From the IMG/VR virus record IMGVR_UViG_3300020048_000021, positions 41,848 through 105,847 of that record: DNA of 64,000 nucleotides. One strand, written 5' to 3'. This document shows positions 4,059 to 57,369 of this stretch, piece after piece. Source of the stretch: a virus. Taxonomy: Duplodnaviria; Heunggongvirae; Uroviricota; Caudoviricetes. The notes under the pieces were generated by a model. It was not told the DNA's origin, did not search any database, and saw only the letters and a program-made list of their open reading frames with translations. The position numbers were made by a program, and so were the translations under genes. Each line of letters starts with the position of its first letter. Position 1 is the stretch's first letter.

Positions 4059-6749
4059 ATGAACTTAAAAGAACTAGATAACTTCTCACTAAGCGACGCC
4101 ATTAAATTTCACGATCAGTTGAATCCTGCTCTCTTTAATGACGAGCATATGAAACCGGAAGTCAGACACAAACTGTTAGAAATTTCAGAAGAGTTTGTAG
4201 ACTCATTGGGCATCAATCAACTACATATTAAAGATATTGTAGTGAGTGGCAGCAATGCTGCCTATTCATACACAGATCATAGTGATATTGATCTACATAT
4301 TATCACTGATATGAATGAATTTAATAATAACAATATCTACTTAGAATTATTCACTGCAAAAAAGAATATATTCAATGATGATCATAACATTAAAATAAAA
4401 GGGTATGACGTAGAAGTTTATGTTCAAGACTCGAATAAGCCAGTTAGAACATTGGGCGAGTACAGTGTATTGAACAACAAATGGACTAAACTTCCGTCCA
4501 AGCGTAGAGCTAACTTTGATCAAAGTAGCGTTGAACTTAAATTTACTAAGTTAATTCAGTTAAGTGAGTTAGCATTACGTGATACTAATATAGATAAATT
4601 ACAAAATCTACTAGCAACACTCAGAAAGTATCGTCAGGCTGGTCTAGACGAGCATGGTGAGTTTGGACCAGAGAACCTAGCATATAAAGCGTTGCGTACT
4701 CACGGTTACGTTGATAAATTATACGATCATTTAAATGATTTAATTAGTAAAAAATTAAGTTTAGATGAAATGATAGCAGAGCAACGAGAGCCATTGGTAT
4801 GGCTCAAAGGCAAACTAAGTGGGTCATATACAGACAAGCAACTTAAAGACATGGGTGCTAGATTGCATAATGGTCAATGGGTAATGACTAAGGCTAGGTT
4901 TGATACATTGATCAGATTGGGTCAGTTACGAGAGTCTACGAGTAGACTCAGTGTGACGAAAGACTTAAACGAATTTGCCTCAGGAAGCGGTGACGATGAT
5001 TTCGGAAATAATATAGTATCTTTAGATACAGTTGCGAAAATAATAGCCATGGAGTTTGGCAACAATGTTACTATAACCAAGGGAACAAATAAGAATCAAC
5101 CATCGTTTAAAATTTCACCTAATAATCAAAGCAATAACTCTATTAGAGTATGGACTACAAGACATCCAAGAACAAAGCAGGTAAATCCTACCTATAACAC
5201 CATTCTATTCATTGATAACTACGGTAAACGAGTCGAGACTGCTAAAAGCAGTACATATGCCAATGCTTTATCTACAGCTAAGTTGTTGAAAAAACCACAA
5301 GATGTAACTGAAAACACAAGCTCTATCAGACTTAAAGATTTAGCAAGAGTTTCTGTCAATATGCCAGATGCAGATTTTTGGATAATTCGCAAAGGTAGTG
5401 ATAAAACAGTAGGCACACCTGTTAAAGAATTTAATCCAGAACGAATTGGTGTTAAAATTGTGCGTACTGACGTGCTTGAGCCACAGTATCTTTATTATGC
5501 AATAATGCATCTTCACAATCAAGGATATTTTGCTAAAGTGGCAGTTGGTACGCTCAAGTTAGTTAATATTAAAGTAGCCGACGTTGCCAATATTTCACTT
5601 GGTCAGCAAACGGTAGATGAAGATTATCATTCAAGTGATCGACCACCTGGTCCAGAATTCCCTCCTACTATGCCTCGTGGTACTGTTAAAGTAGATGTTT
5701 CTGACGTTTACGATTGGTACAAGTTGGGACAACATATTAGTAATTTGAAAGGTTTAGGTAAACATGATTTTGGTAAAGGACCGCCTAGCACTATAATATC
5801 ATTTGGCGATGAAGACACTGAACACAAATATATTAAAGATTTAGAAAAGACTGGATTGTCAACGACTGACATTGACCCGTCTGATCCTAAACAACCAAAA
5901 AATATGAAACGTCAAAAAGTTGATCCGACATATAACGTAGCGGAAGACAAAATAACATTAAGTACCGATCCTAATTGGTATGGTGCAACAATTAATAATT
6001 ATAAAGCAACCGGTCCGGTGGTCAATATACCCGTTAATCAATTAGTTGGTTTTGAGCCAGATGACAAGATGAATCAACCAAAGAGTAAAGCTAATGTTGA
6101 AAAAATAGTAATGGGATTAAAGCGTGGTGATAAACTTCCTCCATTGTTAGTTCGTAAATACAAAAATGGGTATCAAGTATTAGACGGTCATCATAGATTT
6201 TGGGCATATAAATTAGTAGGAACAAAAACTATTCCGGTACAAGTTGTTCCTGATTCTGACATAGAAGAAAAAAGTCAGCAAGTTGTATCAGAAGCCACTC
6301 CTTTTCCAAAAAGTAATGATTATATCGCCGATGAATTAGATAAACTACAGCAGTATTGTGAACAAAATAATATGATCAACTTAACAGAAGTCGTAAAAGC
6401 ATTAAGTATGATGTTCAGAGAGTCCATGAAGACCGGAATTGAAATGTTCTATTGGTTGAAAAATGAAGACTATAGAAGAGCTAAATGGATTAATAAAAAT
6501 CTTAAGACTGTTGGAAACAAAATCGATCTTTCATTATTAATTAGAAGAGAATTAGCAAGAAAGAAAAATCGTGTGACTGAAGCTAGTGGATACATTCCAA
6601 GCGAAGCAGAGAAAAATGATCCACGTTTCAAGACCGCATTAACAGTAGACATTCATCCTAATACGATGAAACAAAATGCCAAGAAATTAGGTTCTAAAAT
6701 ATCTAGAGCAGGTATTCCTCCAATTCTGAAACCATCCGGTAAAATATAA
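4059..6749 (+). CDS. multi-module protein: Pol-beta-type nucleotidyltransferase, unknown modules, HsdS-TRD-like module and ParB/Srx-like module
   Basis: GS..DxD motif VSGSNAAYSYTDHSDIDLH plus DVEVYVQ; ParB/Srx-like LPPLLV..YQVLDGHHRFWA; modules bounded by [LV]xE. Confidence 0.75.
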   Translation: MNLKELDNFSLSDAIKFHDQLNPALFNDEHMKPEVRHKLLEISEEFVDSLGINQLHIKDIVVSGSNAAYSYTDHSDIDLHIITDMNEFNNNNIYLELFTAKKNIFNDDHNIKIKGYDVEVYVQDSNKPVRTLGEYSVLNNKWTKLPSKRRANFDQSSVELKFTKLIQLSELALRDTNIDKLQNLLATLRKYRQAGLDEHGEFGPENLAYKALRTHGYVDKLYDHLNDLISKKLSLDEMIAEQREPLVWLKGKLSGSYTDKQLKDMGARLHNGQWVMTKARFDTLIRLGQLRESTSRLSVTKDLNEFASGSGDDDFGNNIVSLDTVAKIIAMEFGNNVTITKGTNKNQPSFKISPNNQSNNSIRVWTTRHPRTKQVNPTYNTILFIDNYGKRVETAKSSTYANALSTAKLLKKPQDVTENTSSIRLKDLARVSVNMPDADFWIIRKGSDKTVGTPVKEFNPERIGVKIVRTDVLEPQYLYYAIMHLHNQGYFAKVAVGTLKLVNIKVADVANISLGQQTVDEDYHSSDRPPGPEFPPTMPRGTVKVDVSDVYDWYKLGQHISNLKGLGKHDFGKGPPSTIISFGDEDTEHKYIKDLEKTGLSTTDIDPSDPKQPKNMKRQKVDPTYNVAEDKITLSTDPNWYGATINNYKATGPVVNIPVNQLVGFEPDDKMNQPKSKANVEKIVMGLKRGDKLPPLLVRKYKNGYQVLDGHHRFWAYKLVGTKTIPVQVVPDSDIEEKSQQVVSEATPFPKSNDYIADELDKLQQYCEQNNMINLTEVVKALSMMFRESMKTGIEMFYWLKNEDYRRAKWINKNLKTVGNKIDLSLLIRRELARKKNRVTEASGYIPSEAEKNDPRFKTALTVDIHPNTMKQNAKKLGSKISRAGIPPILKPSGKI

Positions 6750-6771
6750 TATTCTTTGAGTGTTAGAACTC

Positions 6772-6779
6772 TATAAATA
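6772..6779 (+). promoter_or_regulatory. late promoter TATAAATA (exact T4 late consensus)
   Basis: 25 nt before ATG 6805. Confidence 0.75.
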
Positions 6780-6804
6780 AAGTCACTAACACCAAGGAAT
6801 ACAT

Positions 6805-7479
6805 ATGCTTGATGCATCGAAAACAGTAGACACAATTAAGATTCGATTTTATATCGACTGGCTCTATAACAATCACATACACGCAGACGGCGAAAACGCC
6901 AATGAAAAAGAATTAACCACTAAGATAATTACCGATCTCATTGATCCATTAAATTTACCAAAGACTGCAAAAATTCTAGATTTGGGATGCGGCGCAGGAT
7001 ATTTTCTAGATGAAATGAAAGCTCGTGAGTATACTAATCTCACTGGCGTAACATTGAGTGTGGATGATATTAAACTATGCACCGACAAAGGACATAATGT
7101 TCAACAGCTTGATTTTAGTTTTCTTCCACAAAGTGCAGGGTACGATGACGAGAGTGTAGATTTTATATTCTTGCGCCAAGCACTAGAACACAGTCCATTT
7201 CCTGTAATTACGCTCATTGAATACAATCGAGTATTGAAACAAAATTCAAAAATATACATCGAAGTTCCAGCACCAGATACCACTCAGAATCACGAAGCAA
7301 TGTTAAATCATTATAGCGTACTTGGATCTAATCAAGTGGCGGCGCTGTTAACTAGAACTGGATTTGATGTTGATTGTTTTAAGACAATTGAATTTGACAT
7401 TACCGCCGATGACGTAACTACAAAAGAAAAATTATTTTGCATAATTGCTACTAAAAAAAGAGCATTGGACATTAAATAA
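6805..7479 (+). CDS. class I SAM-dependent methyltransferase
   Basis: ILDLGCGAG, ESVDFIF, LEH, RVLKQN, IEVP. Confidence 0.88.
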   Translation: MLDASKTVDTIKIRFYIDWLYNNHIHADGENANEKELTTKIITDLIDPLNLPKTAKILDLGCGAGYFLDEMKAREYTNLTGVTLSVDDIKLCTDKGHNVQQLDFSFLPQSAGYDDESVDFIFLRQALEHSPFPVITLIEYNRVLKQNSKIYIEVPAPDTTQNHEAMLNHYSVLGSNQVAALLTRTGFDVDCFKTIEFDITADDVTTKEKLFCIIATKKRALDIK

Positions 7480-43607: not shown

Positions 43608-45635
43608 ATGACAATAGTCCAGATCAGCAAAATACAAATCAGAAGTGGAAACGTAGCGGATCTCCCTCAGTTAGCCGTGGGCGAAATGGGGTACGCGGAA
43701 GACACTAAGCAATTATTCATTGGTACTACGCCTAATATCGGCAATATTGGTCCAAATCTCAATAACGTAGAAGTACTTACAGAATACACTCTGACCACTG
43801 GGTCAACTGGCTATACAGGCGCAACAGGGTCTGGTGCTACTGGACTCGGCGCTACAGGAGCGACTGGAGCTACTGGTTTCGATGGAGCTACTGGATATAC
43901 AGGTGCTACCGGTGCTGGAGCTACTGGTATTGGAGCAAGCGGAGCGACTGGAGCTACTGGTTTTGACGGAGCTACAGGTCAAGGCGCAACAGGAGCAAGT
44001 GGCGCAACCGGAGCTACTGGAGCTACTGGATATACGGGATCAACCGGAGCAACAGGTCAAGGCGCTACTGGCGCTAGCGGATTAACTGGTAGTACCGGAC
44101 CAATCGGTAGTACTGGAGCAAGCGGACTAGTCGGAACTACTGGATACACAGGCGCAACAGGCGCCAGCGGATTAACTGGTAGTACAGGAACAATCGGTAG
44201 TACTGGTGCTAGTGGATTAGTAGGAACTACTGGTCCAATCGGAGCTACCGGAGCTAGTGGTCTACTAGGAAGTACAGGATACGATGGAGCATCTGGATCA
44301 ACTGGATTAACTGGTAGCACTGGAACAATCGGCAGTACTGGTGCAAGCGGTCTTATCGGATTAACGGGTACTACTGGTCTAACAGGAACTACTGGTTTAA
44401 CTGGTAGCACCGGGTATTCAGGTAGTACTGGATTAAGAGGAACTACTGGTTTAACTGGAACTACAGGTCCAGCAGGAACATCAGTTAGTATCATAGGATC
44501 AGTGCCAACAGTAGGAGCAGATCCACAAGCGACTTTAAATGCTGCATTTCCAGGAGCAGTTAACGGAAACGGGGTTATTGATAATACTTCTGGTGATCTA
44601 TGGGTTTATACATCTGGAACATGGATCGATGTCGGTAAAATTCAGGGACCATCAGGAGCAACTGGATTACCCGGTGCTACTGGAGCAAGCGGTCTATCAG
44701 GAACTACAGGCGCTACGGGCGCAAGTGGATTAAGAGGAACTACTGGACCAAATGGCGCAACAGGCGCAAGTGGACTAGTCGGAACTACTGGACCAATCGG
44801 CAGTACTGGAGCTAGTGGACTAACTGGTAGTACTGGAACAATCGGTAGTACTGGTGCTAGTGGACTAGTCGGAACTACTGGATACACAGGTGCTACTGGT
44901 GCTAGTGGATTAACTGGTAGTACTGGAACAATCGGTAGTACTGGTGCTAGTGGACTAGTCGGAACTACTGGATACACAGGCGCTACGGGTGCTAGTGGAC
45001 TGGTCGGAACTACTGGGCTGATTGGTAGTACAGGAGCATCTGGATTAAGAGGAACTACTGGCTTAACTGGAACTACAGGTTCATCGGGATTAAATGGAAC
45101 AACAGGAGCATCAGGATTAACTGGTGCTACTGGAGCAGGAGCAACTGGCTCATCTGGCTTAACAGGAGCAACCGGTTCTGGCGCCACGGGTGCTAGTGGA
45201 TATACTGGTAGCACTGGAGCTGGAGCTACAGGCGCGTCGGGATTAGTAGGAGCTACCGGATATATCGGAGCAACTGGGACTGGAACTGGTGGTTCTGTAC
45301 CAGCATTTTCTTTTGACATTACTTTTGTGTCTACTCTTCCTAGTTCAATTTCAAATGCTCCAGTTGGATGGACAGTCACTATTAATCCAGACGGTAATAA
45401 TGCCAGTACCATTCAAGTCACTCATAACAGAACTGCTATCCCAATAACATCAACAGTTTGGGGATTAGGTTCAATTGCTAACAATTGGACTAATAGAATA
45501 ATCGGAACCGGTTCGATAGCGATGAATTACGTAACTTCGACCAAGATGGATGTCTTGCGATTCACTGGAGTTGATACCACTTCAGCAGCCGCAAGTGGAA
45601 ATAGTGCAACAATTTGGATAATATTCTCAGCATAA
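43608..45635 (+). CDS. collagen-like (Gly-X-Thr/Ser) fibre protein
   Basis: N-terminal [16 protein letters not shown] fibre-anchor motif; two long GXY tracts split by a ~60-aa globular insert. Confidence 0.9.
44821..44980 (+). repeat. 90-bp-period repeat in collagen gene (70 bp identical)
   Basis: 44821-44890 equals 44911-44980; related units near 44080-44240. Confidence 0.9.
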
Positions 45636-45636
45636 T

Positions 45637-46143
45637 ATGGCTAATCCTACAACCCCTCCTCTTCTATTAAGCTTAGTACAAAATACTTCTCCTACAGCAG
45701 TTGCTAATTGGCCATACGGTGGATCATGGGCTAATACTGCATATCAATGGACTTGTGGATTCAATGTCAGTGTTCAAAATACTTCTGATCCAACGTTTGG
45801 AAATCAATATAATGCCAATAATGTGTCTGCTACCAGCGCATCACCTCAATGGATAGGTTCAGGAAATGGTTCATTTGCGTGGAAAATAAAATCTGTTATT
45901 TCTCAAAGTGCGGTTACCGGAAACATAGTAGTTCAACTAGAAGATGTGAATCAATTTAACACGTACAGCAACAGTTCAGGTTCTGGCTACGGCGGTCCAG
46001 ACTCTAATGTAGGCGGTAGATATTTCTTATTTCAAGTATCTAGCACAATGATTCCTATATTGACTCCAGTTACACCTAACGTACTTCCTACTAGCTGGCA
46101 GACAGATATTATTGGTAGATTCACGTCTAACCCAACAAGTTAA
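45637..46143 (+). CDS. virion-associated beta-rich module, paralog of an internal segment of 46172..50089
   Basis: Shared ANW..GGS...AW.I.S.ISQ...ED..Q.NTY...WQTD.I.RF. Confidence 0.7.
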   Translation: MANPTTPPLLLSLVQNTSPTAVANWPYGGSWANTAYQWTCGFNVSVQNTSDPTFGNQYNANNVSATSASPQWIGSGNGSFAWKIKSVISQSAVTGNIVVQLEDVNQFNTYSNSSGSGYGGPDSNVGGRYFLFQVSSTMIPILTPVTPNVLPTSWQTDIIGRFTSNPTS

Positions 46144-46171: not shown

Positions 46172-49100
46172 ATGAGCGCACCTTCAGTAGTCAGTAGCGG
46201 CACCGGTCAATTTGCAGCGGGATTTCCGTTAAATATAACCATAACTAATAATCCGGTCGGTGCCGTTTATACATTAGTGACTTATTTTGTTCCACTCGGA
46301 AGTTCATCTCCTAGTCCAGCAATAACTCCGAACGTTACTATAGCTAATGTGTCGATGGGTTCTCCAATTTCTACCGTTAATGGACTAGATGCTAATGGAA
46401 ACGCAGTAGGTACAGTATTTGTTTGGGGTAAATTAAATCCAGCATCTGGCAGTATTGTAATATCAGGCGGGCAATACGTATATTATAATAGTTCTACTGC
46501 AATTGTTCTTAATTTAGCTAATGTAGCAAACGGGCTGTATCAAGTAGGTAACATAACTACTGCTGCTACTGTCGGGGCGGGAACTACCACCGCCAATTTA
46601 ACATTATCTAGCAATGATACGACTGTCATTGGATTCACTGGTCAATCTCCATATGGCGCCACTGTAATTTTGACTGGCACTCCCACTCCAACTTCAATCG
46701 CTAACATACTCTACAGTGACGGTAGTGCTTATAGTCAAGCCGCGTATCAAGCAGGTGGCAACACAGGTGCAACTAGAAGCATGACATGGACTGCTAGCTA
46801 CGGCGGCGGCACTCCTGCCACTGGACGAACATTAGAAGTAATATTACTTGAATTATATGGCACTACTAGCACTATACCACAAACGATTGGTCCAGTTACT
46901 ACAACGGCAATTAGTGCTGTATTGGGAAATGTCACTGTCACTATTGGAACTCCACAACTAATCACTGTAGATTATTTGCACATTGAATCTACCTTAGGCG
47001 GTATTACAGTTACTAATACCCCAGTAGCAGCAATACCACCAAAGTTATTAAAGATTAACATAAATTCTATTACTGCTTACGCAAATTGGACTAATGGCGG
47101 ATCATATCAAGATGCTACTTACAAATGGACAGTGATTCTCGATGTATTTGCTCAATACAATTCGATTCCTCCCAAATATTATTATAATGGGCTTGACATC
47201 AGTGCTGGTGATTGGTTATCTAATGCTATAGGCGGAAGAGCTTGGAGAATCGATAGTATAATCAGTCAGACTACTAGTTCGATGACGTGTATCATAGAAG
47301 ACGTAAGACAATACAACACTTATACTGATCCAACTGGCACTTCATCTGGATCAGGTGCTCCTACTACAGGAACTGGATTCTTATTTACATTGGTCAGTAG
47401 TGTGCCGACATTAACGCCGGTTCAAAATCTAGTTTTGCCATATACGTGGCAAACTGACACGATAAGTAGATTTGTTTCTACTTTTGTTTCTCCTCCGATT
47501 GTGTCTGTCAACTTTACTGACATAGAAACTGCTACTTTTCCTACTCCAACGCCAGTGTCGATAGTTGGTAATCAATTTGTTGATTCTGGTAGCAATGTTA
47601 TTCGATTGAATTCTATTAATTGGTATGGATATGACGGCCCGTCATTATTAGTTCACGGATTATATTCAGGACTGGCATACACTGCCATGATAGATCAAAT
47701 AGTTCAACTTGGATTTAACACTATTCGTTTACCATTCTCTGACGACATGGTCATGGGTCTGAATTCACAATTATTATTCGGCACTGTTCCCGGAAATCAA
47801 TATCTTGGTCCATTAAATTCGATTATGTGGGGAATGAATTCATTACAAACATTGGATATTATAGTTGATTATTGTGCCCAAGTTGGAGTTAGAATAATAT
47901 TAGATCAACATAGAATCAGTATGTTGGCAGACGGTAGCATATACGACAATCAATACGGCACTGATGGATGGCCACTTGCCAATCCATACGTGTTTACCGT
48001 GTCAACCGAATTACCTTTAGGTGGATATATATTTTGGGGATTACCATCTGCTAATCCAGCACCGTACAGACCTCAAGTAGAATGGGTTCAATTATGGACT
48101 CAGTTAGCAAATCACTTTAAGCGTGATAATTATACTCCGAACAATACATTAGCATCAGCAACGATAGTTGTAACTTCAACTGGCACTACGTCGCTGACAG
48201 TCAGTAGCGTTGCTAGCGGAACTATTGCACTTGGTTCTGTAATATATGGAAATGGAGTAAATATTTCGAAATTTACTGCTACGTCATCAGGCACTACATT
48301 GACAGTATCAGCAATAAGTCAGGGCATAGTATGGAATGGACAAACTATAACGGGCACTGGAATATCAGGCACTGTTATCATTGTCAATCAAATATCACCG
48401 TTAACTGGCGGAGAAACTGTTGGTGGGGTTGGTCGCTATATAACTAGCGCAGTAACTACTTGTTCGTCAGCGGCAATCACTGCTAATAATGGAACAAACA
48501 GCGTTGTTAAAATTGTAAGTCAGACTAGCGGCCCAACTGGTGGCGCCGGAGTTTACGTTACTAGTCTTGCTACTAAGTGTACAGCAGGAACAACAATCAT
48601 TGCATACGGCGACGGAGTTAGTACATCGTATTATGGAATGTACGCATCGAATCCTGTATTACAAAATGTTATTATCGGATTCGATCCACACAATGAGCCG
48701 AGAAATGCACCATGGCCTACTTGGACTAATATGTGTGAGAATTTATTCCCAATAGTCAACGCCATTGTTCCAAATTGGATCATGTTTGTTGAAGGTATTG
48801 GTAGCGGAGCATCATCATATACTGCCACTGCATCCGGAACTACATTAACCGTAACCGCACCTACTACTGTGGCAGTATTAAATAATGGCATAGTAGAAAC
48901 TGCACCTAACTTAGTATTGGTTGGACAAGCAATTAGTGGAAACGGCATTACAGGAACTCAATTCACTGGTACTGCTAATTATTCAACTACGTTAAATGTT
49001 ACATATGTAAATACTGGCACTGGAGTCGGGTATATTAATATCGGTGATGTTATTAATGGCATTGGTGTCAACGTAACTCAATTCACTGCCACTTCTTCTG

Positions 49101-50089
49101 GTAAAACTTTGACGGTATCTGCAATTTCACAAGGAATAATATATCGATATTCATCAGTTACTGGGTCTGGAATTTCACCTGAAACATCAATTGAGTCTCA
49201 AATTAGTGGAACGTCTGGCGGAGTCGGCGTTTACACCACTAATATAGCATCGTCGATGAGTACTCCAACTGCGTGTTCGAGTACAGGCGGGTCAGTTCAT
49301 ATTAATAGTCAACTTGATGGAACTCCCGGTGGAGTTGGAAATTATATTACTAACGTCATGACTTTTTGTACTGCGTCTACGTTATCAACAGCAGTGAAAA
49401 TTGTTAGTCAACTTACAACTTCTGTTCCTGGTGTAAATGGAGTTGCTGGAACATATCTTATTAGTCAGCCAACTACTATAGCAACATCGACATTAGTGTC
49501 TGCATATGACAATTGGTGGTGGGGTGGATATCTTAAAGGAGTGAGAGTTCGTCCGATTAATCCTAGTATAGTTCCTGCAAACAGACTAGCATATTCTCCG
49601 CATGACTATGGGCAATCTGTTAGTACGCAGCCGTTCTTATCATCAAATTCTTCAACCTTTCCGTTGCCTACTGGATATCCATATTCGTCTCAACAAAACG
49701 TTGTAAATTATCCCAACAATTTAGAAGCATTATGGAACGAATATTGGGGATTTATTTATATTGATTTAAATATTCCTATTTGGTTAGGAGAATTCGGTGG
49801 TGGATTCGGAGTCGATTATAGCACTGGATTACCAGATTCAAATCAAACATCATCTGAGTTTGAAAAACAATGGATGAATTCTCTTAGAGATTATTTGAAT
49901 AGACAGCTTAATAATGGCACTACTGATCTTACTGGCTCTGATCTTGGAATGTCATACGCTTACTTTGCTCTTAATCCAGAATCAGGGAATCCACTGGGTG
50001 GATTATTAGAGAATATAGATTATAGTACGGTTCAAACAATTAAGATGGACTTATTGATAGATTTGGTACAATTTAAAGGATTAACTTAA
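46172..50089 (+). CDS. GH5-family glycoside hydrolase fibre/spike protein with nested beta-module insertions
   Basis: INWYG, GFNTIRLPF, ILDQH, HNEP (E842), FVEG, YSPHDYG, LGEFGG (E1207). Confidence 0.85.
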   Translation: MSAPSVVSSGTGQFAAGFPLNITITNNPVGAVYTLVTYFVPLGSSSPSPAITPNVTIANVSMGSPISTVNGLDANGNAVGTVFVWGKLNPASGSIVISGGQYVYYNSSTAIVLNLANVANGLYQVGNITTAATVGAGTTTANLTLSSNDTTVIGFTGQSPYGATVILTGTPTPTSIANILYSDGSAYSQAAYQAGGNTGATRSMTWTASYGGGTPATGRTLEVILLELYGTTSTIPQTIGPVTTTAISAVLGNVTVTIGTPQLITVDYLHIESTLGGITVTNTPVAAIPPKLLKININSITAYANWTNGGSYQDATYKWTVILDVFAQYNSIPPKYYYNGLDISAGDWLSNAIGGRAWRIDSIISQTTSSMTCIIEDVRQYNTYTDPTGTSSGSGAPTTGTGFLFTLVSSVPTLTPVQNLVLPYTWQTDTISRFVSTFVSPPIVSVNFTDIETATFPTPTPVSIVGNQFVDSGSNVIRLNSINWYGYDGPSLLVHGLYSGLAYTAMIDQIVQLGFNTIRLPFSDDMVMGLNSQLLFGTVPGNQYLGPLNSIMWGMNSLQTLDIIVDYCAQVGVRIILDQHRISMLADGSIYDNQYGTDGWPLANPYVFTVSTELPLGGYIFWGLPSANPAPYRPQVEWVQLWTQLANHFKRDNYTPNNTLASATIVVTSTGTTSLTVSSVASGTIALGSVIYGNGVNISKFTATSSGTTLTVSAISQGIVWNGQTITGTGISGTVIIVNQISPLTGGETVGGVGRYITSAVTTCSSAAITANNGTNSVVKIVSQTSGPTGGAGVYVTSLATKCTAGTTIIAYGDGVSTSYYGMYASNPVLQNVIIGFDPHNEPRNAPWPTWTNMCENLFPIVNAIVPNWIMFVEGIGSGASSYTATASGTTLTVTAPTTVAVLNNGIVETAPNLVLVGQAISGNGITGTQFTGTANYSTTLNVTYVNTGTGVGYINIGDVINGIGVNVTQFTATSSGKTLTVSAISQGIIYRYSSVTGSGISPETSIESQISGTSGGVGVYTTNIASSMSTPTACSSTGGSVHINSQLDGTPGGVGNYITNVMTFCTASTLSTAVKIVSQLTTSVPGVNGVAGTYLISQPTTIATSTLVSAYDNWWWGGYLKGVRVRPINPSIVPANRLAYSPHDYGQSVSTQPFLSSNSSTFPLPTGYPYSSQQNVVNYPNNLEALWNEYWGFIYIDLNIPIWLGEFGGGFGVDYSTGLPDSNQTSSEFEKQWMNSLRDYLNRQLNNGTTDLTGSDLGMSYAYFALNPESGNPLGGLLENIDYSTVQTIKMDLLIDLVQFKGLT

Positions 50090-53000
50090 TGCAAAATGCC
50101 GTATTTACAGTAACACTTAATATTCCATGCACGAATACTGTATTGGTAGATTATACTACGGTCGATTTATCGGCAGTCAATTACGTTAATTATGTGATAC
50201 AAAGAGGAACATTAGTTTTTGAACCTGAGCAAACGTCACAGACTGTGACAGTAAGCTTAATGACTTCAACCGAGGCATTATCTACATCTCAGTTTCAACT
50301 TCTTCTTACTAATGCTAGAGAAGTTAATCCTACATTAGGATTAGTAATCGACCCATATTCGGCAGTATGTACCATATCGGCATCTCCATCTTATCCAGCA
50401 GTTCCATTTCCAGGGCGTAGATTGGGAATCATGGGCGACTCATTGCTATACGCAAATAATTATTGGTATCCAAGCATCATCACTCGTGGAAATGACACTG
50501 GCACAGGTGCCGGCCCAGTATTACGATCAAGTTATTATTCTAGAGGCATGACTGGAATAGTTAATTATGCCAATTCGATACTTAATAATGCATTTGAACT
50601 AGAGGCTGGGTTACAACCTAATGCCAATCCAGGTCAAAATTCTACTGCGCCTAACGTAGGCTATAATTTTTCTATATATAGTTCTAAGTTGTCTCAATGG
50701 TTCGAACCAACGTTTGACCCAGCTCCGATACCTCCTAACCCATCTGTCAACGTAGGGCCAATGATCAACGCATTAGTATACGCTGATAATTTTGACATGA
50801 TCGTAATGATGGGCGGTACTAACGACTTAGCAGCAGGGGCAACGGCAAATCAAATTGTATTTAATTTGATGACATATGCATTGCAATTTGCAGCAGTGGG
50901 AAAATGGGTATTTGTTCAAACTATTAGTCCGAGAACATCAGATTTATTTCAAGCTGCGGGTAATGCAACATTGGGGTATTCGGCTGGATATACTCAGGAT
51001 CAAGTTGCTACTTTACTTCAAACAATATTGAATATTAATGATCAACTTCGATCATGGCTCACAACAACTGATGTATATACATCGCCCCCAAATATATTTT
51101 TAGTAGATCATTGGTATGATTTGCTCGGTCCAATTCCATCAGTATTATCAACTGTTGTAGGCGGAGTATTCACTGCCAGTTCATCTGGATTTGCATTGAC
51201 TGTCACTAATGTCAGTGGATTTATAAGCGTTGGGTCATTACTCACTGGCACTGGTATTACCGGTACGGTTAGAATAGTAAGTCAGCAAAGTGGTACTAGA
51301 GGTTCAGCTGGACTTTACACTACTGATACAGTAACCACTTGTTCTAGTAATTCAATAACAGCAACTGGCATACCAACTGATCCAGCGGGACTAACATCAC
51401 CAAGCGGCTTTGCAAATTTTATAGGAAGTTCTTCTGGTACAACATTGACTGTGACTAACGTAAGTGGTTTTATTCAAACTGGTCAACGCATTACAGGATC
51501 AGGAATAACGGGAACCGTTACGATTGTTCGACAAATAACTCCGTATACTACTGGAGAAGTTCACAGAGGAGCAGGAAGATATGTGACTAGTGCAAGCACT
51601 TCATGTTCAGCAGCGGCAATTTTGGCTACTAGCACGACTGCTCAATTTACTGGCACATCTAGTGGATCTACAACATTAACAGTAACAGATGTAACTGTTG
51701 GTAGCATACTTCCCGGACAAACAATAACCGCTTTCTCTAGTACAGCAGCAGCGGTTGGAGTTCCTACTGCTCCTTATATAACAGCAACTTCATCGGGATT
51801 AACCAATGGAGCGACTCCTGGAGTCAATGCTGGACTAACGTTAACCGTATTGAGTACGAGTGGATTAATTTATCCAGGGCAAATTATATCAAGTTTAGTC
51901 GAAGCTCCTCCTCAATTTCTTTCTGGTGGAATGATTCCTCCAGTAATTGGCGGTTTTGCTGCTACTGGAATTGTATGGATCGTTGAACAACTTACCGGAA
52001 CTGTTGGCGGGGCAGGGACTTATTTAACGAGCGATGTAACGTTTTGTTCTAATTCATCAGTCACTGGTACTGTTATCATTCTAAGTCAGCTTAGCGGCAC
52101 TCCTGGTGGAGCAGGCACGTATCAAACTAGTGCTAGCACTACAGTTCCTGCTGGAACAATACTGACAACTACTGGTGGATTGATTTCAGCTAATAATTTC
52201 ATACCATCACAAACTGGTAATTTTAGACCAGACGCTCCAAAACTAAGATTTAATTATGATGGATTGCATTTTACACCAGCCGGATCATATGTAGCGGGTA
52301 AAGTGTTGGCAGCAGCAATGAAAGCAGCAGGAGTTCCAGCACCAGTGGCAGGATACTTAGGCGGAAACAATGCAGCAGCGGGCGGTACAGGAAACGTAGC
52401 ACCGTTGGTTACAAGTGCCGCCAGTATAATGACAAATTCTAATATGACATGTACACTTGGACCAAATGCCGCTCATCGTGTATCCAATACTCCAGTTGTA
52501 TTAGGGAGAGCTATTGGATTGGGTAATGTTAATGTAGTAACCGGATTTGCTGCTTGGGCAGAGGATAATAATATTACGAATGATACGTACACTAATCAAG
52601 GTGCCGGATATCAATACGGTAATGTTCCCAATTATTATTTCATATATAGAGCTAGTAATAATGATGGAGAATCATTCTCTAACTTTAATCAATATACGTT
52701 TACTACTCTTCCGGGAACTCCCGTTGGATTTCAAGACGATTCAACATGGACAAATGGATGTTTAACCACCACTATAAATCCTACTGTGACTTTCACTGAT
52801 ACGTGGAATGTCACTAGAACATTACCGGGATTATCATTGACATTTACTCAACCAAATGTAAACGGAACATCAAATACATCGCCACCTGCGTACACTATCG
52901 GTCCATGGAATTATCCATACACGGTTCCAACTCACACCGCCATAGGTAGAAGCGAAGCATTTATAGTTGAGTATATCGTCGATGAGGGACAATGGTACGG

Positions 53001-53592
53001 TCCATGGAACTCATATGGATACGAAGCTGCTCCAAGAATTCCTCCTGGAATTTCAACTAAATATTCACCAGGTGATTTATTAGCATGTGATTATTATTTA
53101 AAATTTGAAGGAATAAGTCCCAATTTAGTATCATGTAGAGGGGTACTGCAATTCTTGGCAATTGACCCTGAAAATGGAAACACAGCAGCGGCATTATTAG
53201 CATCACTTGTTCTTTCTGAAAGTTATGCTCCGGTTAGCAAAATAGAATTTTGTCATCAGCATACCGAAGATAGAGTAATGTCACTGAGAACTCCTACTGT
53301 AGTCGTTCCTACACCTAATAATACTCCCGCTAATCTTCCGAATTGGGGATCAGATCAAGATACTTCAGTGTATTTAAAAATGGTATGGCAATTTTCATTT
53401 GATTGTGCAGCACCACCTAACAAACAATCAGCCGCTATTCCAGCAACTGGAACTATTACTATTATAAATCCTTCGATTTATAAAGTAACTAATCCTAATG
53501 CTCAGCCAATGAATATTCCTAATTTGACCACTTATCCAAACGCAATTGCAAGTGCATCTACGGTTGGTATCCCTACTATTACTCTTACTTAA
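50089..53592 (+). CDS. Calx-beta-like domain plus SGNH/GDSL esterase with beta-module insertions
   Basis: DY...GTLVFEPEQTSQTVTV; GDSL (S118), GGTND (N245), DGLH (D724/H727). Confidence 0.8.
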   Translation: MQNAVFTVTLNIPCTNTVLVDYTTVDLSAVNYVNYVIQRGTLVFEPEQTSQTVTVSLMTSTEALSTSQFQLLLTNAREVNPTLGLVIDPYSAVCTISASPSYPAVPFPGRRLGIMGDSLLYANNYWYPSIITRGNDTGTGAGPVLRSSYYSRGMTGIVNYANSILNNAFELEAGLQPNANPGQNSTAPNVGYNFSIYSSKLSQWFEPTFDPAPIPPNPSVNVGPMINALVYADNFDMIVMMGGTNDLAAGATANQIVFNLMTYALQFAAVGKWVFVQTISPRTSDLFQAAGNATLGYSAGYTQDQVATLLQTILNINDQLRSWLTTTDVYTSPPNIFLVDHWYDLLGPIPSVLSTVVGGVFTASSSGFALTVTNVSGFISVGSLLTGTGITGTVRIVSQQSGTRGSAGLYTTDTVTTCSSNSITATGIPTDPAGLTSPSGFANFIGSSSGTTLTVTNVSGFIQTGQRITGSGITGTVTIVRQITPYTTGEVHRGAGRYVTSASTSCSAAAILATSTTAQFTGTSSGSTTLTVTDVTVGSILPGQTITAFSSTAAAVGVPTAPYITATSSGLTNGATPGVNAGLTLTVLSTSGLIYPGQIISSLVEAPPQFLSGGMIPPVIGGFAATGIVWIVEQLTGTVGGAGTYLTSDVTFCSNSSVTGTVIILSQLSGTPGGAGTYQTSASTTVPAGTILTTTGGLISANNFIPSQTGNFRPDAPKLRFNYDGLHFTPAGSYVAGKVLAAAMKAAGVPAPVAGYLGGNNAAAGGTGNVAPLVTSAASIMTNSNMTCTLGPNAAHRVSNTPVVLGRAIGLGNVNVVTGFAAWAEDNNITNDTYTNQGAGYQYGNVPNYYFIYRASNNDGESFSNFNQYTFTTLPGTPVGFQDDSTWTNGCLTTTINPTVTFTDTWNVTRTLPGLSLTFTQPNVNGTSNTSPPAYTIGPWNYPYTVPTHTAIGRSEAFIVEYIVDEGQWYGPWNSYGYEAAPRIPPGISTKYSPGDLLACDYYLKFEGISPNLVSCRGVLQFLAIDPENGNTAAALLASLVLSESYAPVSKIEFCHQHTEDRVMSLRTPTVVVPTPNNTPANLPNWGSDQDTSVYLKMVWQFSFDCAAPPNKQSAAIPATGTITIINPSIYKVTNPNAQPMNIPNLTTYPNAIASASTVGIPTITLT

Positions 53593-54378: not shown

Positions 54379-57369
54379 ATGACAATCGGAAGCGTAATAT
54401 ACTCATCATTCGCAAATGTTATTTTAAGCCCAGGTGCTAATTTACTTAGCGCCAATGTAGGCTGTGCATTAGTAAGTACCACTACGGGTGACACTGGAAA
54501 TAATTACACTTATAACAGTTCTCATCAATATGCTTCTAGTATACCAACAGGAAGTATATTATCAACCACGACATTAACTAGTAAAACAGTAGCTAACGGT
54601 GCGTTTACTAGTGGAAATATAGTGTTCACATCGGTGATTCAAAAAGGGGCACAAGCTGGTCAAGCACTTGTGTTTTATCTAGCAACTAATTCAACTTCCA
54701 CTACTCAATTAGTTTCTTATACAGACATTATTAATAGCAATAGTTTTTCAGTGTTGCCAAATGGCGGCAACATTACAGCAACAGTAGGCGCAAGTTTGCT
54801 AACTGTTTCTACCCCAGCTACCTATTCTGTAATTCCTAATATTACTAGCGTAAATGAAGGCAACAGTGTGATTTTCACTGTGTCAACCACTAACGTACCC
54901 GATGGGTCAACGTATTATTGGTCATTGACTTCAGGAAGTACAGCAAATTCAATATGGTTTTCTGACGGTCAAACTTCTGGATCATTTACCATTACTAGTA
55001 ATGTCGCTACAATTACAAGAACTATAAATTATGGATTAACATCCGATATCGCTCCAAATTTTGCATTGCAAGTCATGACCGGTTCTACATCTGGAACAGT
55101 TGTTCCTAATGGAACTAGTAGTGTTGTGACTATCGTAACTCCTCCGGCAGTAACATTTTTAAGTTCTGGTACTAATTTAGGGGTTAATGGTCATAAACTT
55201 TACGACCAATATAGTAACGAATTTATAATAAAAGCTGCATCTTGGGTCGGGACGGATTCGGTATTTAGACCAAACGGATTAGAAAGTAGAAATTATAAAA
55301 ATGTAATAATTCCAGGAACAGTTAGCGTAACTAATGGTAACGTAACAGTCACTGGTTCAGGCACTGCTTGGAATGAAACTGTGGGAGTGTTGCCTCAATT
55401 GACAGTAGGGCAATCTATTCTAATAGGAGGGACTGCTCCATCCAATGCATATACTATTGCAACGATAACAAGTAACACCGTACTAACTTTAACCACTTCA
55501 TACGCCGGAGTCACGGCGAGTTCACTAGTAATCACTAAAGAAGGATTATTAGAAGAATTTAAACGAGTAGGTTTCAATACACTTAGATATATGATATGTG
55601 AAGATATTACATGGAATAGATCCATTCTGGCAACTCCACATAATTGGGATCCTGCCAGCCCTAGTTATGAATTACAGCCAGACGTTAGATTACAGGATGG
55701 TGCATATGGAACTAAACCAAATGCTACTTTAAATTATATAGATTTTTTCAATAATCAAGATTTATTTGAATCAGGTCATACCGCAATTGATACATGTACC
55801 TATGTGATGCCTCAGTGTACCTTGCCGGTACTTCAAATAGTCGATAGAATAGTAGCTCATTGTTATACAATAGGTCTTCGTGTAATATTCGATCTACACT
55901 GTTTAGCTCCAAACACTGATAATAATGCAAGTACTGGTGGTCTTTGGTACACTTCTGCGTATCCATCTGCTACAGTTAGTCCATCTATATCAATTGGAAA
56001 TATCAGAAATGAACAGCAAGCATTAGATTGTTTAACATTACTAGCGTATAGATATGCTAGTAATCCAGCGGTGTGTGGATTTGATCTGATCAATGAGCCT
56101 TTTAACGGAACATGGGATGTTAATACTAATCTTGGATCTCAACCTGCATGGCGTCCAGCGTTCGGGAGTGCATTTGGTGGAGTTAATGCACCGGCTGGAA
56201 CATGGTACGTAGGACAAGCAACTAGTGAATCATTTACTAATAGTAGTCTTGTGAGTTTCTATGAAAGATGTTCAGCGGCGATTCATGCTGTAAATCCAGG
56301 AGTTATGTTGATATGTGAAGGTCCAGCTCGTTATCAAGAAGCTAGACAACAAAGCATTGTTCCCGGAACGGTGACAGTTATTAATGGTAGTAACGTCGTT
56401 ACTGGAACTGGCACTTATTTCAGTGGAAGCACCGGAAACGTCGTTGCTCTAGCACTTACTCCAGGAACTACTGTTTCTATTTGGAATTCAGATAAAACTA
56501 CTGTAGCGAACGCTGCCACGTACACTATTGCGTCAGTTAACAATAATACTCAAGCTATATTGTCTTCAACTTACTCAGGTGCAAATGCAACTGGCATGTA
56601 TTTGTACAGACAAGATGGAGCTTGGTTTAGTACAGGTTCAACTGATTTTACTCCAGTTGGATCAGGAACAACGGGCCCAGCAGGCTATCAGTATTCAACT
56701 GATTCTACTACTGGTCAATGGAATTGGGGAGTTACTTACGCTGCGGCACTAAACAGTGTGGCAATCGTCAATAATATTCCAGCCGATACTCAGACTCAAC
56801 ACAAATACGTCGTTGCTACCGCCACCACTCTTCAGAATAAAGTTATCTATTCTCCTCATGAATACCCTTATACGGTTCAATCATTTAATCGACAGTGGTT
56901 TACATATTTGGCATCCCCGCCATATAGCTCAATTACGTTGCCTACTAATTATACAGCTCAAGGTGGATTACAATGGCCATTAAATATGCCAGAAGTATGG
57001 CGTAGACAATGGGGGTATCTAGCAGAACAAAAATTATATCCAGTGTTTATAGGAGAACTTTCATCGCAGTTTGCTTATTATAATGCCACCGCCGCCGGAG
57101 TTACTCCGGGTAGTCTTGGAACACAATTGAATTATGCTGAAGACATTGGGTGGATAAATCAAATGGGTGCATATTGTGCAACCAATTCGATTAGTTATGC
57201 TTGGTTTGCATTTAACGCAACTAACGGAGTAGAACCAGGAGATGGAAATACAGGTGGCGTATTTAGATTTAACGGAAATACTATTCCAGGTGGTGGAATA
57301 ACCGTGGCTGCTCAGCAATATAAACTATCTATATTACAAACAGCGGGCCTCTTAACCCCACTGACTTAA
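54379..57369 (+). CDS. structural domain plus Calx-beta/Ig-like domain plus second GH5 glycoside hydrolase with insertions
   Basis: SWVG, GFNTLRY, IFDLH, DLINEP (E573), CEG, YSPHEYP, IGELS (E893). Confidence 0.82.
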   Translation: MTIGSVIYSSFANVILSPGANLLSANVGCALVSTTTGDTGNNYTYNSSHQYASSIPTGSILSTTTLTSKTVANGAFTSGNIVFTSVIQKGAQAGQALVFYLATNSTSTTQLVSYTDIINSNSFSVLPNGGNITATVGASLLTVSTPATYSVIPNITSVNEGNSVIFTVSTTNVPDGSTYYWSLTSGSTANSIWFSDGQTSGSFTITSNVATITRTINYGLTSDIAPNFALQVMTGSTSGTVVPNGTSSVVTIVTPPAVTFLSSGTNLGVNGHKLYDQYSNEFIIKAASWVGTDSVFRPNGLESRNYKNVIIPGTVSVTNGNVTVTGSGTAWNETVGVLPQLTVGQSILIGGTAPSNAYTIATITSNTVLTLTTSYAGVTASSLVITKEGLLEEFKRVGFNTLRYMICEDITWNRSILATPHNWDPASPSYELQPDVRLQDGAYGTKPNATLNYIDFFNNQDLFESGHTAIDTCTYVMPQCTLPVLQIVDRIVAHCYTIGLRVIFDLHCLAPNTDNNASTGGLWYTSAYPSATVSPSISIGNIRNEQQALDCLTLLAYRYASNPAVCGFDLINEPFNGTWDVNTNLGSQPAWRPAFGSAFGGVNAPAGTWYVGQATSESFTNSSLVSFYERCSAAIHAVNPGVMLICEGPARYQEARQQSIVPGTVTVINGSNVVTGTGTYFSGSTGNVVALALTPGTTVSIWNSDKTTVANAATYTIASVNNNTQAILSSTYSGANATGMYLYRQDGAWFSTGSTDFTPVGSGTTGPAGYQYSTDSTTGQWNWGVTYAAALNSVAIVNNIPADTQTQHKYVVATATTLQNKVIYSPHEYPYTVQSFNRQWFTYLASPPYSSITLPTNYTAQGGLQWPLNMPEVWRRQWGYLAEQKLYPVFIGELSSQFAYYNATAAGVTPGSLGTQLNYAEDIGWINQMGAYCATNSISYAWFAFNATNGVEPGDGNTGGVFRFNGNTIPGGGITVAAQQYKLSILQTAGLLTPLT

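Follow-up and report, generated by a model that had tools for sequence, protein, structure and literature searches.

How two neighbouring phage enzymes come to carry long runs of one small repeated module inside their catalytic domains is the question raised by a stretch of 64,000 nucleotides (the window), which is part of the 169,847-bp IMG/VR virus record IMGVR_UViG_3300020048_000021 (estimated completeness ~49%). The two adjacent genes, P0001 and P0002, lie on the plus strand according to the open reading frame (ORF) calls and their translations, and P0001 is very likely a GH5_1-type endo-β-glucanase and P0002 an SGNH esterase, which is the best explanation of their sequences. Both contain copies of a ~70-residue module, a small six-stranded β-barrel that can be divided into an N-half and a C-half. 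We conclude that the copies are nested in one another and in loops of the catalytic domains, and we put the probability of this explanation as a whole, for both enzymes, at about 0.8. The elements concerned are as follows.

46172 to 50089, plus strand: P0001, 1305 residues; residues 1–459 without assignment, GH5 catalytic domain at residues 460–1305, split by two inserts.
48161 to 48613 (residues 664–814), plus strand: insert 1, a depth-2 nest, N1[N2 C2]C1, in the α3–β4 loop of the GH5 barrel; outer halves at 48161–48259 and 48494–48613, inner module at 48269–48487.
48821 to 49507 (residues 884–1112), plus strand: insert 2, a depth-3 nest, N1[N2[N3 C3]C2]C1, directly after strand β5 (FVEG); N1 at 48821–48958, N2 at 48959–49072, inner module at 49079–49279, C2 at 49289–49390, C1 at 49391–49507.
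50089 to 53592, plus strand: P0002, 1167 residues; Calx-beta domain at residues 4–96, SGNH-type esterase domain at residues ~100–760, split by the module array, then a C-terminal part.
51169 to 51633, plus strand: two uninterrupted modules (residues 361–427 and 444–515) that start the SGNH insert.
51643 to 52179, plus strand: depth-2 nest of the SGNH insert; outer halves at residues 519–550 and 659–697, inner module with enlarged loops at residues 564–658.

The order of the half-modules was determined with two profile hidden Markov models (HMMs), one built from nine aligned N-halves and one from nine C-halves of the window copies. These half-HMMs read the first array of P0001 as N664-N700-C733-C777 (NNCC), the second as N884-N930-N970-C1005-C1040-C1074 (NNNCCC), and the array of P0002 as N361-C392, N444-C475, N519-N564-C627-C660 (NC NC NNCC). 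Every match has an independent E-value (i-E) of 1e-8 to 1e-18. The same models gave no match at i-E < 0.01 in 400 shuffles of P0001 and P0002. The remaining ORFs of the window, and those in the rest of the 170-kb virus record, were equally free of matches. A preliminary description of this DNA had read 48170–48609 (residues 667–813) as N1[N2 C2]C1, 48818–49506 (residues 883–1112) as N1[N2[N3 C3]C2]C1, and 51169–52178 (residues 361–697) as two complete modules followed by N[N C]C; the half-HMMs recover the same three orders, so that the repeat-HMM analysis it proposed for both proteins returns balanced N/C orders with zero matches in the shuffles.

When an outer N-half and its C-half are joined by script, the product has full module length and the module motifs, and aligns end to end with uninterrupted copies at 35–61% identity. 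All four split modules break in the same 3–5-residue turn, between GxG[IV] and V.I[VL].Q. The single shared hinge proposed earlier is thus borne out for all four insertions of the window, and a second hinge is also used elsewhere in the family (see below). In the SGNH nest, a loop of the inner module is enlarged by 20 residues at this same turn.

Pairing of the separated halves into barrels was addressed with an AlphaFold2 model of residues 660–816 of P0001, which comprise the first nest. The input combined this segment with 11 nest rows (three from P0001 and its sibling P0003) and ~130 diverse single modules, drawn from the best 150 of the 3,738 cluster representatives of the module family. 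The model has a mean predicted local distance difference test score (pLDDT) of 88.9 and a predicted template modelling score (pTM) of 0.78, with the outer halves at 86–95. The predicted outer strands (model residues 3–23 and 31–33 on one side, 120–125 and 134–153 on the other) mirror those of the inner barrel (39–58, 66–69, 76–83, 95–103 and 108–113). Most structural matches of the model in a VIA exhaustive comparison cover residues 34–118, which correspond to the inner barrel. The phage tail proteins 9n71_B, 8gtc_P and 8vjh_A, however, match from residue 1, 2 or 4 to residue 156 or 157 of the model with only 64–73 residues aligned, and each is itself matched within one short stretch of 79–91 residue numbers. 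As the full range is spanned by so few aligned residues, the matched unit appears to be the outer barrel, N1 plus C1. The model is therefore consistent with an outer barrel of the first nest that is built from the separated halves N1 and C1, and it agrees with the earlier proposal that N- and C-halves pair as the chain runs out and back, since both barrels of this nest are formed in the prediction. A Foldseek search of the nest model against the Protein Data Bank (PDB) gave no match at E ≤ 0.001.

The host domain of these two nests is clearly identified. P0001 matches Pfam family PF00150 (Cellulase/GH5) with 89.2 bits (gathering cut-off 23.5) in three stretches, as well as PHROG 18474 (hydrolase), and its profile matches the structures 8FC0 and 1ECE with E-values of 1e-153 and 6e-142, respectively. 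The GH5 catalytic set is complete, consisting of R519, H580, N841-E842 (E842 within HNEP), H1144, Y1146 and E1207 (within LGEFGG), all of which are invariant in the alignment of relatives. The relatives P0004, P0005 and P0006, with 43–58% identity to P0001 in the core, align to its residues 461–665, 822–880 and 1113–1300 and to nothing in between, and a compact enzyme of ~360 residues is present in all 14 related IMG/VR loci and in 48 GenBank phage records. Since these compact relatives have no inserts, the arrays are true insertions in loops of the catalytic domain. They add 151 and 229 residues to P0001. Based on the order of secondary structure elements in the model, insert 1 lies between helix α3 and strand β4, away from the active site on the opposite face of the barrel, and insert 2 lies between the end of β5 and the WWGG motif, on the catalytic face. 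The inserts had been said to part the two catalytic glutamates by 365 residues; the distance is correct (it is 135 residues in the compact P0004), but only the three-deep nest lies between E842 and E1207, the first nest being located upstream of E842. Many bacterial GH5 relatives carry a CBM2 domain, and P0001 is without one.

An AlphaFold2 model of residues 460–1305, calculated from an 18-row alignment, has pLDDT values of 70–91 in the core segments. Compared as a whole (846 residues) with 1ECE and 8FC0, it superposes through three segments, with template modelling (TM) scores by target of 0.77–0.83 and a Foldseek E-value of 5e-16. Because the superposition extends across all three core segments, the GH5 barrel is predicted to reassemble around both inserts, and the intact TIM barrel that the preliminary description expected from AlphaFold is indeed obtained in this model.

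P0002 starts with a Calx-beta domain (Pfam PF03160, E 6e-9), followed by SGNH block I (GDSL, residues 116–119), block III (GGTND, residues 242–246) and block V (DGLH, residues 724–727). N245 of GGTND is thus parted from D724 and H727 of DGLH by the module array, as stated earlier, and all of the residues that had been named (E842 and E1207 of P0001; N245, D724 and H727 of P0002) occupy the expected positions in their motifs. A Pfam scan of the whole of P0002 gave no match to a GDSL family, and the low score of the domain is attributable to the 337-residue insert that splits it. BLASTP aligns Pseudomonas phage Skulduggery gp20 (YP_010655392.1), annotated as a tail protein, to residues 100–348 and 710–1134 of P0002 with 27–33% identity and with the SGNH blocks in register. 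Where P0002 has 361 residues, the stretch that holds the module array, gp20 has a loop of 21 residues. By its motifs and this compact homologue, P0002 may be called SGNH-type, a designation made outside Pfam membership, and the same two lines of evidence suggest that its core may reassemble around the insert. As the catalytic residues are all present, we infer from the sequences that both the GH5 and the SGNH enzymes are active.

A sibling phage contig, found in ENA, shares both the gene order and the nests. Identity between the two phages is 87–97% for the nests and the module array, where no insertions or deletions occur, and 88–100% for the catalytic segments. That the nests are as conserved as the core, and free of indels, argues that they are folded and kept by selection. 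The copies within the window resemble one another at the DNA level with 60–86% identity over 21–47 nt only, which rules out a recent duplication; together with the protein identity of 35–61% between copies, this indicates that the nests are old. No close relative of the nest region turned up in a metagenome scan. The comparison of nesting depth among relatives therefore covers one sibling contig, the related IMG/VR loci being all compact.

Searching 1.84 billion proteins with a complete-module profile gave a family of 3,738 cluster representatives at E ≤ 0.001. Known families and structures are not matched at the sequence level: the module profiles found nothing credible among PDB sequences (the best hits, with E 0.55–0.8, are antibody light chains), and Pfam scans of 10 and of 134 module copies gave only scattered matches with E > 0.008 (FeoA, Big_6). 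Just two PHROG families contain the module, one of them unnamed and the other labelled ‘tail fiber protein’. Two candidate assignments were rejected. FlgD_tudor rested on a weak match in P0038 that was not reproduced, and E1_FCCH (PF16190), to which a feature-based Atlas neighbour (0.84) and a Z-score of 5.4 to 4p22_B had led, matches 0 of 134 copies at E ≤ 1. In the VIA comparison, the inner barrel resembles EF-Tu/IF2 domain-2-like barrels with Z-scores of 6–7.8 and root mean square deviations (rmsd) of 2.7–3.5 over 71–80 residues, a range (Z < 8) in which matches may reflect merely a common barrel arrangement. The best 50 matches consist of such barrels and of phage proteins, with no RNA polymerase, hybrid-motif or lipoyl-type domain among them. 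Phage virion proteins make up nearly all of its structural neighbours in the ESM Atlas and BFVD, among them cement or decoration proteins, P22 gp10-like proteins, side tail fibres, tip attachment protein J, HK97 capsid fusions and pectate-lyase tailspikes. P0038 and P0117 combine module arrays with XM1 gp53 / Phage_cement capsid domains in one chain, so that display of the barrel extends from tail enzymes to capsids.

The window-only half-HMMs are too narrow for distant C-halves and were rebuilt from 484–487 family halves for a survey of family members. Arrays in the family are mostly plain tandems (NCNC), and a further seven representative proteins contain tight NNCC runs. Of the 13 non-trivial N/C words that have as many N as C, 8 are balanced, compared to 2.07 expected from shuffling; among all non-trivial words the fraction is 8 of 53, a noisy test in which one missed half breaks the balance. 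The words of P0027 (770 residues) and P0174 (2226 residues) reach a nesting depth of 4–5. In P0027 the complete word (NNNCCNNNCCCNCNCC) is balanced, as though one outermost module enclosed the rest. The nest of P0033 uses the same hinge as those of the window. A second hinge, located after strand β4 and before GGxGTY (…TITAF / GTGGxGTY…), is used in P0042, P0056, P0116, P0135 and P0146. The use of two hinges across the family suggests independent, repeated events of self-insertion.

The NNCC orders could in principle be incidental, left by decayed tandem repeats whose orphan, unpaired halves serve as linkers or are disordered. The noise of half-detection in the wider family, with its many unbalanced words, would fit such decay, as would the unstructured inserts of the full-length AlphaFold2 run. 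We nevertheless regard decay as very improbable, given that all three arrays of the window are exactly balanced and ordered, that rejoined halves reach full module length with conserved motifs, that the outer halves are confidently modelled, that the nests persist without indels in the sibling phage, and that the gaps between halves are too short to hide missing ones. Many phage depolymerases are trimers, and the halves might thus pair between chains, the arrays acting as an oligomerisation device by domain swapping in a trimeric, tail-spike-like assembly. This is very improbable, as the monomer model closes both barrels (pTM 0.78) and the hinge linkers are only 2–6 residues long, which suits a hairpin that leads in and out; nested pairing within one chain is also published for the Si3 domain (PMC10895346). 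Nests that are real but functionally neutral, i.e. in-frame expansions tolerated in permissive loops, are unlikely and yet deserve more weight. Insert 1 is on the non-catalytic face of the barrel, the module occurs on very diverse virion proteins, and a paralogous GH5 protein (54379–57369) has a different module in the same β5–α5 loop, as expected of a permissive site. The near-equal conservation of nests and core between the siblings, without indels, speaks against neutrality, although over a short evolutionary distance.

Several observations weigh against the nested arrangement, or limit how much of it each nest supports. Both inserts have a pLDDT of only ~35 in the model of residues 460–1305, which is useful for the core only. 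A confident model exists for one nest of depth 2, and the depth-3 and SGNH nests rest on the order of their halves. For the modelled nest, the alignment behind the outer barrel has only ~12 rows, and the N1–C1 contacts are deduced from model confidence, secondary structure and alignment ranges. The barrel matches with Z < 8 are subject to the reservation given above. The N-terminal part of P0002 scores below the Pfam gathering thresholds (15.6 vs 23.6 bits for PF00657, and 13.8 vs 32.9 bits for PF13472). Finally, virion location, enzyme activity, module function and the shape of the projection are those parts of the explanation that we infer.

On the explanation preferred here, surface loops have taken up arrays of barrels in frame, namely α3–β4 and β5–α5 of the TIM barrel and, in the SGNH domain, the loop just ahead of block V (DxxH), and whole barrels sit in the β3–β4 turn of other barrels. 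The chain then runs out through the N-halves and back through the C-halves, with the barrels closing in a last-in-first-out order. It would return near its exit point, so that the host domain and the catalytic core could stay intact, which would explain why inserts of 151 and 229 residues fit TIM-barrel loops without breaking the core. The three-deep nest, in this arrangement, would stand beside the substrate cleft of the GH5 enzyme. Many phage surface proteins are decorated with this barrel, and by analogy the modules may be accessory domains at the surface, with a part in glycan binding, adhesion or spacing. The elongated shape envisaged in the preliminary description, an ‘extensible monomeric stalk’, is possible, and the receptor-binding role assumed there is a putative one. 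More tentatively, and less probably than not, the modules may represent a very large and hitherto undescribed family on phage surfaces, unusually prone to insert into itself and into the loops of other domains at no fewer than two hinges. Phages would then grow branched, tree-like glycan-binding projections from enzyme loops, and the three-deep nest would be a substrate-capture arm that replaces a terminal CBM2.

The genes that flank the pair include the following.

43608 to 45635, plus strand: collagen-like tail-fibre gene located upstream of the enzyme cluster; its 675-residue product contains long stretches of collagen triple-helix repeat (Pfam Collagen, E 8e-52).
45637 to 46143: ORF of 168 residues that matches no known family, between the collagen-type gene and P0001; kept in the sibling contig.
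54379 to 57369, plus strand: second GH5 protein, 996 residues, with its Pfam match stretched across residues 483–947.

Downstream of P0002 lie an ORF of 237 residues and the second GH5 gene. The protein of this second GH5 gene has another β-module of ~80 residues (GTVxVxNGSxxVTGxGT...YTIxSV) at residues ~310–388 and ~659–747, and the copy at residues ~659–747 occupies the same β5–α5 loop as the three-deep nest of P0001. With a different module in the same loop, the β5–α5 loop looks like an insertion hot spot. On the minus strand, a 105-residue ORF (48631–48948) lies entirely within the nest-coding region of the P0001 gene and is probably a chance open frame.

Relatives carry tail or baseplate protein annotations, and P0001 and P0002 are probably virion-associated, glycan-degrading enzymes of an uncultured phage. 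Several Erwinia phages (e.g. phiEaP8, 6030–7347) have a compact cellulase gene followed directly by a gene that starts with Calx-beta, an order that matches P0001 and P0002. In a contig of GCA_037975565.1 (NCBI; L025:1328–5989), a protein of 1553 residues combines Calx-beta, GH5 and GDSL in a single chain; it adjoins the GH5 relative P0006 and a SASA esterase, and is near an SU10-type portal. The pairing of GH5 with an esterase recurs in other phages without barrel modules.

The two proteins are of wider interest in several respects. Insertion of one domain into another is common, and repeated self-insertion of the same fold is documented mainly for the Si3 arm of the cyanobacterial RNA polymerase. 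Standard domain annotation under-calls such enzymes, as the SGNH domain falls below the Pfam threshold and the GH5 match is broken into three. For two enzyme folds that are widely engineered, the loops show natural, dated sites at which insertion is permitted, and in each case a relative without the insert is at hand for comparison. They also suggest a route by which phages could add binding or spacing surfaces to depolymerases while the termini remain unchanged.

Our literature searches gave no description of barrels nested in this way, either in proteins of phages or within the loops of GH5 or SGNH domains. What is new is the nature of the host domains, the unnamed module family, and the presence of two separate nests within one enzyme; recursive insertion of the same fold is itself known. 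The Acidothermus cellulolyticus endoglucanase E1 (1ECE) and the metagenomic CelE2 (8FC0) share the catalytic core of P0001. These enzymes have 350–380 residues without inserts, whereas P0001 has its two loop inserts. Similarly, Skulduggery gp20 shares the SGNH-type domain and the C-terminal part of P0002 and differs from it in the N-terminal part. The solved phage protein closest to a single module is Gp7 of Arthrobacter phage Bridgette (8ECI), a surface capsid decoration protein (bioRxiv 10.1101/2022.09.09.507160), which superposes onto the inner barrel with a Z-score of 7.3, an rmsd of 2.7 over 71 residues and 28% identity (Foldseek probability 0.98). Gp7 is a single domain that is not nested, and it has no sequence-level match to the family profile. 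In RTX adhesins such as AhLap, split domains project ligand-binding domains (PMC12077191). As in the window proteins, a host β-domain is split so that a second domain projects laterally from a surface protein of fibre-like form; in the adhesins, however, the insert has a different fold and its ligand is demonstrated, whereas host and insert have the same fold in the window.

The closest parallel is Si3 of the cyanobacterial RNA polymerase β′ subunit (RpoC2), which consists of eight sandwich-barrel hybrid motif (SBHM) domains with recursive nesting, four of the eight being discontinuous (PMC10895346), and which a 2026 survey describes as a six-level recursive architecture (PMC13114784). Here too, one small β-domain is self-inserted and the array occupies a catalytic-domain loop, which for Si3 is the trigger loop; there, the host enzyme stays functional and the array forms an elongated arm. 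The hosts differ, being a GH5 TIM barrel and an SGNH fold of phage proteins in the window, as does the depth of nesting, which is six in Si3 compared to two to three here. Membership of the window module among the SBHM domains is not established, and P0001, unlike Si3, carries two separate nests in two loops of one protein.

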